Sequence record: PP886228
Reading direction: 5' to 3' (one strand)
Length of the DNA: 64,000 nucleotides
Origin: Escherichia phage vB_EcoM_D4
Shown: piece after piece, positions 20,685 through 50,804 of the stretch
How the letters are laid out: the number at the start of each line of letters is the position of its first letter
Numbering within the stretch: the first letter of the stretch is position 1
The notes under the pieces: generated by a model
The model's input: the letters and a program-made list of their open reading frames with translations, nothing else
Databases searched by the model: none
Told to the model about the DNA's origin: nothing
Made by a program: the position numbers and the translations under genes

Positions 20685-21821
20685 TTATTCGTAGTCTCGA
20701 ATAACGAGGCCAACAGGAAACTGTAAAGAACCCTTACGAGTCATCTTCTGGAACTGAACCGTTAAAGGCTTCCCAATAAACTCTTCAGGATGTTCAGCAA
20801 GATACTGTTTCTTCTCATGAGTAGTCTTCCATGAGACATCTACAAAGACGTTAGGAAGAGTCTCTACAACGAACTTGCCATGACCACGCTTATCAGTCTT
20901 TACACCAGTCACTTTAAATTCTTCAGTGTGCATCTTCTTGTGCTTAATCAAGAAGTACGAACGGTGACAACACTCATAGAAGGAGTCTTCAGAGATTGAA
21001 CGGTACATTGCACCTTCAAACTTAGCTTCAACCCACTTATCATGAGCTTCATCAAACTCTTCCCAAGAATTTACACGACGAGACTTAACAGGAACAACTT
21101 TACAGCCATCTCTGAAGTCATTCAATGGTGAAGTCTCAATGATATCTCTACGCTCAGGCCACGTCTTAGTGCTGTCACAGATGTCGTACCAGTAAAACTG
21201 GAGTAGATGTCGGTCTGGATTGTCAGCATTCTTAATCATAGACACAATATCTTCTAAGTCCCAACCATGAGCATAAATCTCACCATCAAAGTCTTCGACT
21301 TGTGGATGCAATTTAAGCAACAAAAGCAAATCTGGGATTAGTTCTGCTGGGACGTTGTAAACAGCATTCTCACGAGAATAAGCCGTGAAGCTAACTGAAT
21401 CAGCATCTCTTGAAATTCTACAACGTACACCATCAAGTTTTGGTTGAGCATCAGCAGGGAATATCAAATACTTTGCATGACTCACCTTTGCAGCATCATG
21501 AGCAAGCTGTACACCTACCTTCTCAGTATTCTGTGCAGACTCTTTTGTGTAAGCATAGCCTTTGCGGTCAATTTGCTTTTTATACTTAGCAGCAACTTCA
21601 AAGAGAGCTTGCTGTTCAGCGTTACGCTCATTCTTTTTACCGATGTTTTTCGGTTCTGCTGTGTACTCTTCAAACATCATCTTGCCATTTTCTTTACCGT
21701 AGGTTGTAATAACTTTGTCGCCTACAGCAACGCATGACCATACGTTGAAAGAGCCATCTTTATTTTGTTTGTACAGTATTGTCATTTTATTCCTCTGAGT
21801 GATACCAAGTGTTGCAAGCAT
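20685..21821 (-). CDS. ATP-dependent DNA ligase
   Basis: Ligase motif I KLDGVR, motif III FDGEIY, EGAMYR and LIKHKK downstream in correct order. Confidence 0.7.
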   Translation of the reverse strand: MLATLGITQRNKMTILYKQNKDGSFNVWSCVAVGDKVITTYGKENGKMMFEEYTAEPKNIGKKNERNAEQQALFEVAAKYKKQIDRKGYAYTKESAQNTEKVGVQLAHDAAKVSHAKYLIFPADAQPKLDGVRCRISRDADSVSFTAYSRENAVYNVPAELIPDLLLLLKLHPQVEDFDGEIYAHGWDLEDIVSMIKNADNPDRHLLQFYWYDICDSTKTWPERRDIIETSPLNDFRDGCKVVPVKSRRVNSWEEFDEAHDKWVEAKFEGAMYRSISEDSFYECCHRSYFLIKHKKMHTEEFKVTGVKTDKRGHGKFVVETLPNVFVDVSWKTTHEKKQYLAEHPEEFIGKPLTVQFQKMTRKGSLQFPVGLVIRDYE

Positions 21822-21978
21822 TACATGCGTAAAGCTCTAAGTCATTTTTATCTGGTTTATGAAAACAGTTTGCTCCGCAGTGGCAACGAAACGGCTTTCC
21901 ACCAACTGTCAGGATGAAAGATTGAACCTTTCCATCAGGAGTTCGTACAGCATTTTTATGCTTATCTTCTTTGTTCAT
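21787..21978 (-). CDS. zinc-finger small protein
   Basis: CHCGANC...CNACN four Cys. Confidence 0.3.
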   Translation of the reverse strand: MNKEDKHKNAVRTPDGKVQSFILTVGGKPFRCHCGANCFHKPDKNDLELYACNACNTWYHSEE

Positions 21979-22280
21979 TTTCTCTTACCACCAATCTCTA
22001 CGTCAATAACCTGAACATCACCAGCAACATCAAACTTGTGAATGATGCTTTCCACAGTGTAAGTCCAACCATCGATGCGAACCAATTCACCTTCTCGTGG
22101 GACTATTGGGTTACGTTGAGCTACGGTTGTAGTGGAGTGAACAACATCATAACAATAGATATAGTTTACTAGGACTTCCATCGTGAAAACCTCACTCAAT
22201 AACCGTAGTATGTGATTGACCATTTTTGCCATAGCTATAAGATGTTGTTGTTTGAGAGTTTGGACATCTGACAACAACAA
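21975..22280 (-). CDS. hypothetical protein
   Basis: ORF from track; real start may be internal ATG at 22181. Confidence 0.3.
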   Translation of the reverse strand: MLLSDVQTLKQQHLIAMAKMVNHILRLLSEVFTMEVLVNYIYCYDVVHSTTTVAQRNPIVPREGELVRIDGWTYTVESIIHKFDVAGDVQVIDVEIGGKRK

Positions 22281-22428
22281 TATCTCTGCTTATGGCATCG
22301 CCATGTAACTTGTAGACTTTGCAATCTTGCATCTCTGGTGGGAGGCTATAAGAAGCATTTTTATCCTCGTAAGAGGGATTGCAGCCAGCTAGAAAAATAA
22401 CACCAAGCACAATTACTGCTTTCCACAT
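22192..22428 (-). CDS. lipoprotein
   Basis: Signal peptide with lipobox LAGC. Confidence 0.45.
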   Translation of the reverse strand: MWKAVIVLGVIFLAGCNPSYEDKNASYSLPPEMQDCKVYKLHGDAISRDIVVVRCPNSQTTTSYSYGKNGQSHTTVIE

Positions 22429-22430
22429 AG

Positions 22431-22598
22431 CACTTCTCCTATTTACTGTTCACGATGTTCTACTTCTCTATATGTACGCCGGTAGTATATGATGAGCTGT
22501 GCTAAGTCGCTACTTTTAACATCTGAGCGTAACAGTTGCCAATCAAAACCTTTACCGACCCTTCCATATAAACTAAAGAATTTTACTTTGCGTTTCAT
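22431..22598 (-). CDS. small basic ORF (55 aa)
   Basis: Hand-translated MKRKVKFFSLYGRVGKGFDW...; below ORF-track cutoff. Confidence 0.2.
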
Positions 22599-22615
22599 TT
22601 TGGTGTTCCCAATAC

Positions 22616-22843
22616 TCAGAGGTCAATGCTAATACGTTCACCCTTAAGGACTCCTGTACGGTCTCTTGCAATCTTACCGTCAACAATAAGGATATGCGCA
22701 GACTTTAAAGATTCACTATTAAAACCTTTTACGAACTTACTAGGCATCACCACAATAAGCATCTCTTGAATCAACTCTGGAGTATAGCAATTGTCGTGAA
22801 GTTGCTGAATAACATCTGCAAGTGTCATTTTTGGTGTCTCCAA
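22616..22843 (-). CDS. small protein, paralogue family A
   Basis: Shares MTL...EMLIV...GKIA.D.TG.LKGER..I pattern with ORF 23031-23240. Confidence 0.4.
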   Translation of the reverse strand: METPKMTLADVIQQLHDNCYTPELIQEMLIVVMPSKFVKGFNSESLKSAHILIVDGKIARDRTGVLKGERISIDL

Positions 22844-23034
22844 TACTCAATGTCAATAAGTTCTTGTGCAATGCTTTTCAGATTACCTTTCAAGAAAACC
22901 TTCTCAGAACCTGAAAGAGATGAATTGTCAATTAACCTGTTCATTCTCTCAAACAACTTCTGTTTACGATTCTTGATAGTTTCCTTTGAAGCACCTTTCA
23001 TCATCGCTGCATGGGTTCTTCCACGGTGGCTCAT
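22825..23034 (-). CDS. small basic protein
   Basis: 69-aa ORF between the two paralogues. Confidence 0.3.
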   Translation of the reverse strand: MSHRGRTHAAMMKGASKETIKNRKQKLFERMNRLIDNSSLSGSEKVFLKGNLKSIAQELIDIEYWRHQK

Positions 23035-23240
23035 AGTAAACTCTCAATATTTACACGCTCACCTTTTAAGTAGCCTGTCTTATCTTTTGCGATTTTACCT
23101 CCAGCAATAAAGATATCTACTCTACGTAGAACTTCAGGGTTTACCCTAGAACTACTGCAAATGACAATAAGCATACTTTCAATCTCTTTTTGAGAATACC
23201 CAGCACATTGCAACTGTACTTCAATCTCTGAAAGTGTCAT
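23031..23240 (-). CDS. small protein, paralogue family A
   Basis: Paralogue of ORF 22616-22843. Confidence 0.4.
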   Translation of the reverse strand: MTLSEIEVQLQCAGYSQKEIESMLIVICSSSRVNPEVLRRVDIFIAGGKIAKDKTGYLKGERVNIESLL

Positions 23241-23301
23241 GTGACCTCCTATACAAGATACAGTATAAGGTACTCTTCCATGAGCACCTTGTCAATATTA
23301 A

Positions 23302-26001
23302 TTAGTGTACTTCAAGCCAGCTTTTACCAACCTTACCAGTACCTGTTACAAGTGTTTCTTTCTTAAGACCTAAGTTCTTAGAAGCTTGCCCATAATACCA
23401 GTCAGTAACTGCTTTCACTTCTGCCGTCATACTTTCTGGACATTCCCAACTCGTTTCATCGTGATATGCGCAGAGCAAGCGAGCACCAATAGCTGGTTGA
23501 CGACCATTCAACTTCATCAAACCTTCGTCAATCATACGACGACAAGCAAGGTTAATTGCCTCATTTTGAATCTGAGCCTCTGAACCCATCAAAAGATAGT
23601 TCAACAGTTTGTGTGGAGATTTACACCACAACCAAGCTCCAGCAACCTTTACAAAACCCCCTTTAGAGATTGCAGCAGTCTTACCAAACACCTCTTCAAG
23701 TGCTTTTTTAGTCGCTTTGTAGTCAGCTTCCAAGTCATCAAGCAGCTTCTTAATTTTAGGCAAACGAATAAAGTAAGTCTGTTTAGTCAGTGCACCTTCC
23801 TGAGTAGTTGCAGCTTTAATCGTCTTAGCAAACTTCTCATCACCTGCACCGAACAGCAGTGCATAGATACCATTCTTAGCTTTCTTACGACCCTTACTAA
23901 TCTCATGAAGAAGATTCTCATCCTGAGTAGCTCGGCAAGTCAAGATATCCTGCTCATCATTCAAGCTAAAGTAAATACTGTTCAGTGTGTGTGCATCAGT
24001 CCCTGAATAGACAACGTAAAGGTCATTCTCAGAGTCATAGCGTAGGTACTTATCAATCTCTGGATTGAGGTACTCATCAAAGTGTTTGCAGTAATAGCGT
24101 CCATCTTCTTGACGAATAAACTCAATCTCTTCTTTACCTTGCGTTACCGCTTTGGTGAAGTCTTTGTCACCCATAAAGTTACAAAGAAGAACTAGCTGGG
24201 CTGAGTTCATGTCTACAGAGACAACGTTAGTACCTTCTTCACAAATCCACACTGCCCTCATTGGTTCCCCATAGACAGCAGCACCAGACGGTACGTTTAC
24301 AATACCATACTGTGTCATACGCCCAGTTGAAGTACCAAATACCATTGCACCAGCACTAAGGCGACCATCAGGACGAATCTGGTTCAGCCAACCTTTTTCA
24401 TCATCCTTTGAGTTCTCAATAGTTCTGCGTCGGTGCATCAAAGTATAGTACTTAGCAATCTTCTGTCCAAGCTCACCTTCAATCGTATCATAAGATGATT
24501 CAGTAAGCTTTGGTGAAGTCCTAATCAGACAAGGTTCAAGTAAATCTGTGTACTTCTTCACAGACCAGTTATGCTCAATGTACTGGACACCTTCATGTTC
24601 AACATAACTCAACCCACACCGTTCAACCATCTCCTGCCACTTAGGATGCTTTGTAATCATCTTTTTGTTGTCTTTGAAACGACAAACTTTGACAGGGCGA
24701 CCGTCTGAATCTTTCTTGTAGTTCCAGTCATCTGGAATCCAACCAACTGATTTCAAATAGTCTTTAACAACTGCTACCTGAGTCATACGAGAAACTTCGA
24801 ACTCAATTGGTGTATATGGTGCATCAATCAAACCTGTGTAGCGACTTGACTCAAGCTCAAAGTGGTTAACAACATGGCTGTTATAGTACTTCACAGTTTT
24901 AACTGTTTTTACTGGCTTCCAATCTTTGCATTTCTTACCAATCTTTGCATTCAACTCATTGCAAATTGCACGAGCATCCTTCATTGCTACAAAACCTTCC
25001 TTGTACTCTTCACCAGTTACAGAGTTGGTTGGTGTATAGCAATTCCGCTTTTCAATGTTAAAAATCTTTGTAGTTGGCTTACCAAATGGCTTGATTTCAT
25101 ATGTCTGCATCTCACCGTTACGTACCTGCTGACGATACTTTGTCTTAGGGTACTTGGTAATTCTCTTCAATCCATCTGCATGCCCGAATGCTTCAACATA
25201 CTCATTCCAAGCTTTTGCAAACTCTTCTCCAGTGACTTTACCTTTGGTCTTAATAGTTGGTGGAAGGTGTGGTTCAACTTCTGAAGCAAGCTCATTAGTC
25301 AACTTGTCAAGTTCCTTTACATGAAACTCCATAAGTTCTTTATCAGCTTTCCAACCATTGATAGCTTGTTGACTCATCCAGAAAGATGTTTCTTTAGCTC
25401 GCATGTAGGTTTCATAAGTATCTACGCCACACTTCTTCAGCTTGAGATATTCATTATCCAGTGCGCGTTTAGTTTTGGCGTTAATACGGATATCTTCTAC
25501 AACACGAGTGAAGATTTCTGCATTCCACACACCCCAATGTTCAATCTCTGGTTTACGTACACCAACACGAGCACCCCATGCTGCCAAGCCATGAGCGCCT
25601 TTATAGCCTTTTGGAGTTGGTCTATCCATCCACTGAACACGAGACTGGATAAGAGAATCCTGAAAGAAATTACTCCACGGCTTACACTTTGGATTATCAA
25701 AGTTCCACAAATCAGGTGCAATGTGATTGAAAACCCACCAGTCATATCCCAGACCATTATGGATGCAAAGTCGTTTTGCCTTTAACGCAAACTCAACACC
25801 TTCACGCAAGCCACCCTTAATGTACTTGGTATACTTGTGACCGAGGATAGGTTCATCTGTAAAGACCCATACAGGCGGCTCTTCATCGTCAGATTTATAG
25901 TCTGCGAAAGCCATTACGTGCACTTTAGTGAACTCAAGGAGTAAACCATCAGTTTCTGTATCACCAACTAAATGTAAGTTTTTAAAATCTACGTTTTCCA
26001 T
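23302..26001 (-). CDS. DNA polymerase, family A (Pol I-like) with 3'-5' exonuclease
   Basis: Exo motif DTETDGL; polymerase motifs RKKAKNGIYALLFG (motif B-like) and YHDE (motif C); start set at ATG 26001 (MENVDF) with SD gagggag. Confidence 0.8.
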   Translation of the reverse strand: MENVDFKNLHLVGDTETDGLLLEFTKVHVMAFADYKSDDEEPPVWVFTDEPILGHKYTKYIKGGLREGVEFALKAKRLCIHNGLGYDWWVFNHIAPDLWNFDNPKCKPWSNFFQDSLIQSRVQWMDRPTPKGYKGAHGLAAWGARVGVRKPEIEHWGVWNAEIFTRVVEDIRINAKTKRALDNEYLKLKKCGVDTYETYMRAKETSFWMSQQAINGWKADKELMEFHVKELDKLTNELASEVEPHLPPTIKTKGKVTGEEFAKAWNEYVEAFGHADGLKRITKYPKTKYRQQVRNGEMQTYEIKPFGKPTTKIFNIEKRNCYTPTNSVTGEEYKEGFVAMKDARAICNELNAKIGKKCKDWKPVKTVKTVKYYNSHVVNHFELESSRYTGLIDAPYTPIEFEVSRMTQVAVVKDYLKSVGWIPDDWNYKKDSDGRPVKVCRFKDNKKMITKHPKWQEMVERCGLSYVEHEGVQYIEHNWSVKKYTDLLEPCLIRTSPKLTESSYDTIEGELGQKIAKYYTLMHRRRTIENSKDDEKGWLNQIRPDGRLSAGAMVFGTSTGRMTQYGIVNVPSGAAVYGEPMRAVWICEEGTNVVSVDMNSAQLVLLCNFMGDKDFTKAVTQGKEEIEFIRQEDGRYYCKHFDEYLNPEIDKYLRYDSENDLYVVYSGTDAHTLNSIYFSLNDEQDILTCRATQDENLLHEISKGRKKAKNGIYALLFGAGDEKFAKTIKAATTQEGALTKQTYFIRLPKIKKLLDDLEADYKATKKALEEVFGKTAAISKGGFVKVAGAWLWCKSPHKLLNYLLMGSEAQIQNEAINLACRRMIDEGLMKLNGRQPAIGARLLCAYHDETSWECPESMTAEVKAVTDWYYGQASKNLGLKKETLVTGTGKVGKSWLEVH

Positions 26002-26061
26002 TTTTACTCCCTCTAAAATCATTAACCTCATACATTACTGCAAAAAATTATAAAAAGCAAG

Positions 26062-41345: not shown

Positions 41346-41354
41346 AACTTGACA

Positions 41355-41393
41355 AGGTGGTGTGAGTCTTGATAGGCTTACATCACCTTTTTT
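41355..41393 (+). terminator. terminator hairpin with T-run
   Basis: aggtggtgt ... acatcacct stem then TTTTTT; preceded by TTGACA. Confidence 0.4.
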
Positions 41394-41499
41394 ATTGGAT
41401 GTTAGACATGGCAGAGAGTATTATTGGGTTGTTCATAGGTTCTGTCTTACTAGGGTTCTTTTTAGGACTTTCTTATTGTGAATTAAGAGGCAAGTTAAA

Positions 41500-50774: not shown

Positions 50775-50804
50775 TTGACAAGGGGCTTCAAAGCCCCTTA
50801 GAAT
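50775..50804 (+). promoter_or_regulatory. promoter with hairpin-forming spacer
   Basis: TTGACA, 18-bp spacer containing ggggcttcaaagcccc palindrome, TAGAAT. Confidence 0.45.

Follow-up and report, generated by a model that had tools for sequence, protein, structure and literature searches.

What do two related proteins of about 70 amino acids (aa) do behind the DNA polymerase gene of a lytic phage, and how did both come to lie there? The question is raised by a 64,000-nucleotide (nt) stretch of Escherichia phage vB_EcoM_D4 (PP886228; hereafter the window), in which an array of small genes in the order B-C-A-D-E-F-G lies between the genes for DNA polymerase (23302-26031) and DNA ligase (20685-21821), with all genes of the locus on the minus strand. 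Paralogue B (23031-23240, 69 aa) occupies slot 1 of the array and paralogue A (22616-22828, 70 aa) slot 3, on either side of the open reading frame (ORF) C (22825-23034, 69 aa). An initial annotation had described two tandem paralogues flanking a small basic ORF and suggested that they may represent diversified inhibitors or adaptors. The observation is confirmed, including the basic ORF, which is present as ORF C with an isoelectric point (pI) of 10.3 and its full 69 codons, and the interpretation is partly supported. A and B are two old types of one family rather than the outcome of a recent local duplication, and they stand in a hotspot where cassettes are gained and lost.

The homology of the two proteins is evident from an alignment over their whole length, in which 31 of 69 residues are identical (45%; BLASTP, E = 1e-17). 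The Smith-Waterman score of 130 lies far above that of shuffled sequences (23.1 +/- 4.5, maximum 53 in 5000 shuffles; z = 24), and the paralogy is therefore real. Both proteins match the profile of PHROG 4230, A as an A-type member with residues 1-69 on profile positions 1-69 of 72 (E = 1.6e-41) and B as a B-type member with residues 1-69 on positions 1-72 of 72 (E = 1e-33). This family of ~70-aa proteins carries a function-unknown label, and outside the Felix O1-like phages it occurs only in a small number of distant relatives. A is the orthologue of Felix O1 ORF93 and has the same position. It had been given as 22616-22843, from a TTG at 22843, and is here assigned to the ATG at 22828 (MTLADV...), because all homologues begin with MTL and GenBank uses the same start (22616-22828). 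AlphaFold models are confident for both proteins, with a predicted local distance difference test score (pLDDT) of 92 for B and 94 for A, and the structure prediction proposed as a check agrees with the alignment, both models predicting the order helix, short helix, strand, helix, strand, strand. The columns invariant in both types are M1, T2, Q9, L10, Y15, I20, M23, I25, I43, G48, I50, D53, T55, G56, K59, G60, E61 and R62. The polar invariant residues group in the strand and loop GKIxKDxTGxLKGER, while residues 27-42 are variable, most so among B types. A likeness of the DKTG motif to the phosphorylation site of P-type ATPases was rejected as a short chance resemblance, A types having DRTG and the protein only 70 aa.

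The phage of the window is Felix O1-like. The 2-kb stretch around A and B is 100% identical to Escherichia phage vB_EcoM_I14.1 and 88-95% identical to many Felix O1-like phages (JN01, UAB_Phi87, VpaE1, mio and others), and 302 phage records match it in the polymerase region. The GenBank record identical to the window, PP892526.1, is filed under Demerecviridae; Tequintavirus (T5-like), a taxonomy line that looks wrong, as the sequence, the gene order and all close relatives are those of Felixounavirus (Ounavirinae). Among the 302 records, tblastn finds the family in 253 with B and in 254 with A as the query, and the remainder are mostly Erwinia, Pectobacterium and Hafnia phages. A family member is thus present in nearly all Escherichia, Salmonella, Shigella and Citrobacter phages of the group, and none was detected in the Erwinia and Hafnia Ounavirinae. 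Felix O1 ORF93 (NP_944952.2) and wV8 gp102 occupy the same place behind the polymerase gene as the family members of the window, and the distant members P0126 and P0128 likewise lie between polymerase and ligase. Only 34-35 of the 253-254 records have two places, so about one in seven to eight relatives carries both types and most have a single copy; A types (at least 80% identity) occur in 217 records and B types (at least 60% identity) in 66. A text search of the Felix O1 genome paper for 'paralog' found no mention of the type split or of the co-occurrence.

These data bear on the suggestion that the pair arose by a recent local tandem duplication, its copies diverging fast as arms-race inhibitors. 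The tandem arrangement of two copies in one genome agrees with such an origin, as does the variability of residues 27-42, mainly in B types. However, A shares 85-97% of its residues with A types from elsewhere, and B 64-100% with its own type, as against 45% between A and B, so that the copies are not closer to each other than to their orthologues in other phages. The number of synonymous substitutions per site (dS) between A and B, ~0.94, is near saturation, and outgroup members are 33-46% identical to A or B, which is as distant as A and B are from each other; the split is therefore old. Each type stands alone in other genera, ORF C is not part of a repeat unit, and within types the ratio of nonsynonymous to synonymous substitution (dN/dS) lies between 0.13 and 0.19 and exceeds 0.67 in no pair. 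A recent duplication is largely refuted by this divergence and retains very little probability.

The same substitution ratios indicate that A, B and C are under purifying selection, with pairwise dN/dS of 0.19 for A (23 distinct orthologues), 0.13 for B (7 orthologues) and 0.06 for C. They are expressed-looking, folded proteins. In Felix O1, the transcript of ORF93 (A type) reaches its maximum at 25 min, along with those of ORF96 (polymerase) and ORFs 88-90 (PMC3185647, Table 3). The idea of chance ORFs, or of a true feature on the opposite strand, draws on an ORF of 114 codons on the plus strand (22766-23110), antisense to the A/C/B region. It is extremely improbable, since the minus-strand frames are under purifying selection in dozens of genomes and have Shine-Dalgarno sites or ATGA coupling, A and B have confident folds, an RT-PCR (reverse transcription PCR) product is reported for the orthologue, and an Rfam scan brought nothing to family threshold. 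That the two ORFs encode genuine small proteins, as the initial annotation had assumed, is thus well founded.

ORF C belongs to a different family, PHROG 5180 (E = 2e-46), and its similarity to A or B is not above chance. GenBank annotates it from an internal ATG (22825-23004, 59 codons), but its full 69 codons (start MSHRGRTH) are conserved in 20 loci at 87-100% identity, and the longer frame is accordingly adopted; in other phages the full-length start stands directly behind a Shine-Dalgarno site. Its N-terminus (GRTHxxMMKGASKETIKNRK) is loosely like the NUMOD-type DNA-binding repeats of homing endonucleases, with no profile match. On a metagenome contig, a protein of 92 aa (P0029) joins a B-type N-terminus to the +1 frame of ORF C; this 'fusion' is most likely not natural but due to a sequencing error or a frameshift where B and C overlap.

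How the two types came to stand together can be approached by comparing gene orders, which was done for 34 loci from GenBank and IMG/VR. Behind the polymerase gene (pol), wV8 continues with A-D and several loci with C-A-D, the latter preceded in Felix O1 itself by an HNH gene (ORF96 polymerase, ORF95 HNH, ORF94 = C, ORF93 = A type, and on to ORF88 ligase). The window and UAB_Phi87 have pol-B-C-A-D, and Mordin has pol-B-C-X-D, with a different cassette X in the place of A. Michonne has pol-HNH-A'-C-X, in which A' is a third type, SUSP1 has pol-HNH-A-X-F, and ESCO50 has pol-HNH-B-F. The slot behind the polymerase is thus filled differently among phages, which marks the array as a hotspot of cassette gain and loss. 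Cassette X itself is absent from the window. It encodes 67-70 aa (MTYEEAIEAMKQGKKVRNENF...), stands after C or A (Mordin, L003 1904-2107; Michonne, L004 1922-2125; SUSP1, L005 1732-1944), and matches the Pfam Tad2-like family (Thoeris anti-defence 2) at a borderline 24.9 bits for a cut-off of 25.

Three kinds of border separate the cassettes. The first consists of ATGA stop/start overlaps. Both paralogues had been described as coupled in this way to the ORF downstream; this is right for B and C (ATGA at 23031-23034), and C is in turn coupled to A (ATGA at 22825-22828), but A and D are separated by a 17-nt spacer. In the pol-C-A phages, the ATG of C stands behind a Shine-Dalgarno site at the exact place of the ATG of B in the window. 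The second kind is a junction of ~30 nt (ATTGAC..GAGTATTGGRRACACCAAAATG), made of the end of one gene and the ribosome-binding site of the next. One copy comprises the 3' end of C, the ribosome-binding region and the ATG of A (22826-22858, minus strand; TATTGACATTGAGTATTGGAGACACCAAAAATG), and the other the 3' end of A, the spacer and the ATG of D (22596-22628, minus strand; CATTGACCTCTGAGTATTGGGAACACCAAAATG); the latter coincides with the repeat family D5 (21 nt, 90%). The pattern occurs only at these two places in the 64-kb window (C to A and A to D), where none is expected by chance, and in Mordin and SUSP1 the same junction stands ahead of the different cassette X. A reading of C or D as a degenerate third copy of the paralogues was rejected, as their alignments with A and B score no better than shuffles; the shared 30 nt are a junction and not a trace of coding homology.

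The third kind of border is provided by the paralogues, which also recombine with each other. At least one single-copy phage shows this: in ESCO50 the gene is of B type as far as ...KGER and ends in the A-type tail IDILELI, and this B/A chimera is followed by the gene that comes after A in wV8. Such a form is what would be expected from a crossover within the conserved motif, with loss of C and most of A, and the ESCO50 sequence fits this. A further hint comes from codon 4 of A, which is TCA, as in B, in 13 of the 15 A genes directly following the putative promoter, and GCA in all 16 located after C (Fisher p 5e-7, uncorrected for relatedness). As a lead, this pattern suggests that many of the single-copy forms may derive from a B-C-A ancestor via recombination between the 5' ends.

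In many relatives the array is preceded by an inserted HNH homing endonuclease gene, which fills exactly the interval from the stop codon of the polymerase gene to the TTGACA discussed below (L004 936-1448, L005 922-1449, L006 946-1449, and Felix O1 ORF95 in L044). It is absent from the corresponding place in the window (23296-23301). In several loci with ~570 nt from the polymerase end to the first small gene, the identity of the polymerase C-terminus falls to 63-83%. This distance would give room for the HNH insert, and the drop in identity may come from co-conversion during homing.

The 60 nt ahead of the first small gene are almost invariant in more than 30 loci of three genera, whether A, B or C comes first and with or without an HNH gene upstream. 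In the window, the element (23267-23295, minus strand) reads TTGACA, 17 nt, TACCTT, ~22 nt, AGGAGG, 4 nt and ATG, with a perfect match to a -35 hexamer at 23290-23295, TACCTT at 23267-23272 and, as read from the sequence, the Shine-Dalgarno site AGGAGG at 23245-23250, 4 nt ahead of the ATG of B. TACCTT retains only T1, A2 and T6 of a -10 hexamer, and a simple promoter scan missed the element because of this fit at three of six positions. It is taken as a putative weak -10 from the homologous elements of relatives, namely TTGACA-16-TATAAT in distant relatives and TTGACA-17-TATCTT in Erwinia phages. An alternative TTGACA-22-TATACT was discarded, its spacing being unworkable and the comparison with distant loci giving the 17-nt spacing to TACCTT. 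A 9-bp hairpin, AAGGTGCTC-ATGGAA-GAGTACCTT (23267-23290), extends across the spacer and the putative -10; at -12.9 kcal/mol it is better than 300 of 300 shuffles, and hairpins with different stem sequences stand at the same place in five lineages. We infer that the element would serve both as a host sigma-70 promoter for the array and as the 3' hairpin of the polymerase (or HNH) transcript.

After the homologous element, the distant relative L035 (5774-6001) and the Erwinia and Hafnia phages (L040/L041, gp058) begin with a gene for a different protein of 75-88 aa, and the two proteins (MKSPIKLKLVDKEGFIAF... and MEKIFEVRVKDREGFIRH...) look related to each other. L035 has two small genes between polymerase and ligase, this 75-aa gene and then a family member. 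Two further sites in the window resemble the element. At 50775-50804 (plus strand), the composite TTGACAAGGGGCTTCAAAGCCCCTTAGAAT contains a hairpin of -13.3 kcal/mol within a promoter-like TTGACA-18-TAGAAT, and at 41349-41395 (plus strand), a promoter-like site lies over a terminator-like hairpin with a T run (TTGACAAGGTG...CATCACCTTTTTT). The phage may use a class of such promoter/hairpin elements, similar to the PeSL elements compared below.

The palindrome raises the possibility that a family member binds it and autoregulates the array through an N-terminal segment resembling a helix-turn-helix (HTH). In most genomes the gene next to the putative promoter, whose spacer contains the conserved inverted repeat, encodes a family member, the N-terminus (TLSEIEVQLQCAGYSQKEIESM) is superficially HTH-like, and one distant member matches a repressor PHROG, though insignificantly (E = 0.33). 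However, A and B are acidic to neutral, with a pI of ~6, their second helix has only 5 residues, and they match no HTH family profile or fold, in spite of the many HTH folds that the PDB contains. Their N-terminal helices differ strongly, yet phages with A alone and phages with B alone have an identical palindrome. Across lineages the stem shows covariation of the kind seen in an RNA hairpin, and the Erwinia phages retain the hairpin without a detectable family member. In view of the pI, the missing HTH match, the differing helices with an identical palindrome and the stem covariation, a DNA-binding autoregulator is improbable.

Searches for relatives of A and B yielded little that could point to a function. 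A profile search of 1.84 billion cluster representatives returned 13 clusters of the family, and word-indexed searches returned ~170 near-identical clusters on contigs of ~85-90 kb from the same phage group, all named 'hypothetical'. Neither the exhaustive profile search nor the three word-indexed searches revealed domain fusions or named relatives, and a match to a 1484-aa eukaryotic repeat protein was spurious. Sequence searches of Pfam, NCBIfam, PADLOC and the PDB gave nothing usable, with no match at E <= 1 to Pfam, including known anti-defence families such as Tad2-like PF11195, or to PADLOC, and no solved structure in the PDB matches the models. A likeness is seen to phi32_100 of phage phiEco32 (73 aa, hypothetical), with a Foldseek TM score of 0.62, a probability of 0.98 and an E-value of 0.08, scores below database-wide significance. 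This weak likeness extends to fold and sequence, the profile match covering ...HYLIIDGVLVKSRHG, but phi32_100 is without the LKGER end of the family, and its BFVD entry was assigned by length only. In the literature on the function or RNA sequencing of the small genes of Felixounavirus, only a reverse transcription PCR table from 2010 was found, and none of the family, fold and literature evidence assigns a function to A or B.

Our best guess is that A and B are small binding proteins that would use the invariant loop. As small soluble products of a promoter-headed accessory array, they would make contact through GKIxKDxTGxLKGER, the strand and loop near the C-terminus that do not vary between types, and specificity would be adjusted by the variable residues 27-42 together with the N-terminal helices peculiar to each type. 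The partner would more likely be a host or defence component than the replisome, and the presence of both types together would widen the range of what the phage can bind. The accessory character of the array is seen in its lipoprotein gene, its small zinc-ribbon-like genes and, in relatives, the borderline Tad2-like cassette. Taken as a whole, the proposal of an old A/B pair within a cassette array, headed by a promoter and hairpin and encoding host- or defence-directed binders, is moderately probable.

Several points weigh against this proposal. The promoter call is drawn from the sequence and has a weak -10 (TACCTT), and the authors of the Felix O1 genome paper found no good promoters in this region. 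By reverse transcription PCR, Felix O1 ORF93 peaks in mid-infection and not early (PMC3185647). The association of codon 4 concerns one nucleotide and is uncorrected for phylogeny. Nearly every member of the enterobacterial Ounavirinae has at least one copy of the family, without exception placed between polymerase and ligase, a pattern that fits a replication-linked role equally well or better than a dispensable, host-specific effector.

The principal rival is accordingly a replication accessory, in which A and B would bind the phage polymerase, ligase, primase-helicase or the DNA of the fork, acting as an adaptor or in processivity or loading, with the two types being interchangeable. It would account for the constant position of the family, which extends to the distant L035, for the retention of at least one copy in almost every enterobacterial member (253-254 of 302 records), for the purifying selection on A and B, and for the peak of Felix O1 ORF93 alongside polymerase and ligase. 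This possibility is unlikely on balance. The moderately favoured proposal of host- or defence-directed binders can also be taken further: PHROG 4230 might represent a new fold class of small effector, an inhibitor or a ligand 'sponge' directed against a host defence, nucleoid or replication factor, with the invariant loop as its binding site. This extension is speculative and is put forward tentatively. If it were true, phages with both A and B would overcome a wider range of hosts or defences, and the paralogues would be built-in recombination points that let a population swap or drop cassettes.

The rest of the array consists of further small genes. ORF D (22443-22598, minus strand, 51 aa, basic) is the next cassette after A and is kept, missing or swapped in relatives; it matches PHROG 2381, which, like PHROG 5180, carries a function-unknown label. 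A 78-aa ORF (22192-22428, minus strand), which matches PHROG 902, again a family labelled function-unknown, contains a lipobox, FLAGC, with the cysteine at position 16, and its product is a predicted small lipoprotein, for which a role in superinfection exclusion or a similar process is possible. Two further small genes lie between the lipoprotein gene and the ligase gene. A 63-aa ORF (21787-21978, minus strand) has a CxC...CxxC pattern (CHCGANC...CNACN) and resembles a small zinc ribbon; some relatives have it in duplicate, L026, L030 and L034 each containing two G-like matches.

The locus illustrates neatly the retention and reshuffling of small accessory genes in a lytic phage, with two old versions of one gene in tandem and chimeras between paralogues. 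Felix O1-like phages are used in Salmonella typing and biocontrol. The confident predicted fold without a structural relative makes the A/B family a reasonable target for a function screen. The current understanding is not overturned by these findings; such an array is an ordinary feature of lytic phage genomes. The description of the pair as unusual is not supported, as it sits in a typical variable small-gene array of a kind well known from T4-type phages.

Two known systems invite comparison. T7 encodes the small host-directed proteins gp5.5, gp5.7 and gp5.9 beside its DNA polymerase gene. These resemble A and B in their size of less than ~100 aa and their place after a family A polymerase gene of a lytic coliphage, and the likeness is one of position only. 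A closer parallel is found in the PeSL elements and hyperplastic regions of T4-type phages, in which an early-type promoter and a stem-loop head small variable genes between core genes (Arbiol et al. 2010, PMC2839356; Comeau et al. 2014, PMC4122927). The element of the window likewise joins a stem-loop to a putative promoter and heads small variable genes between polymerase and ligase. Relatives of the T4-type PeSL phages differ by insertions and deletions of whole cassettes at short conserved sequences (PMC2839356, PMC4122927), as do those of the window array. By contrast, copies of the PeSL flank the variable ORFs in T4-type phages and mark the end points of insertions and deletions, whereas the window array has a single copy, at its head, and its cassettes meet instead at ATGA overlaps, at the repeated ribosome-binding junction and at the paralogues themselves, in a different lineage, the Ounavirinae.
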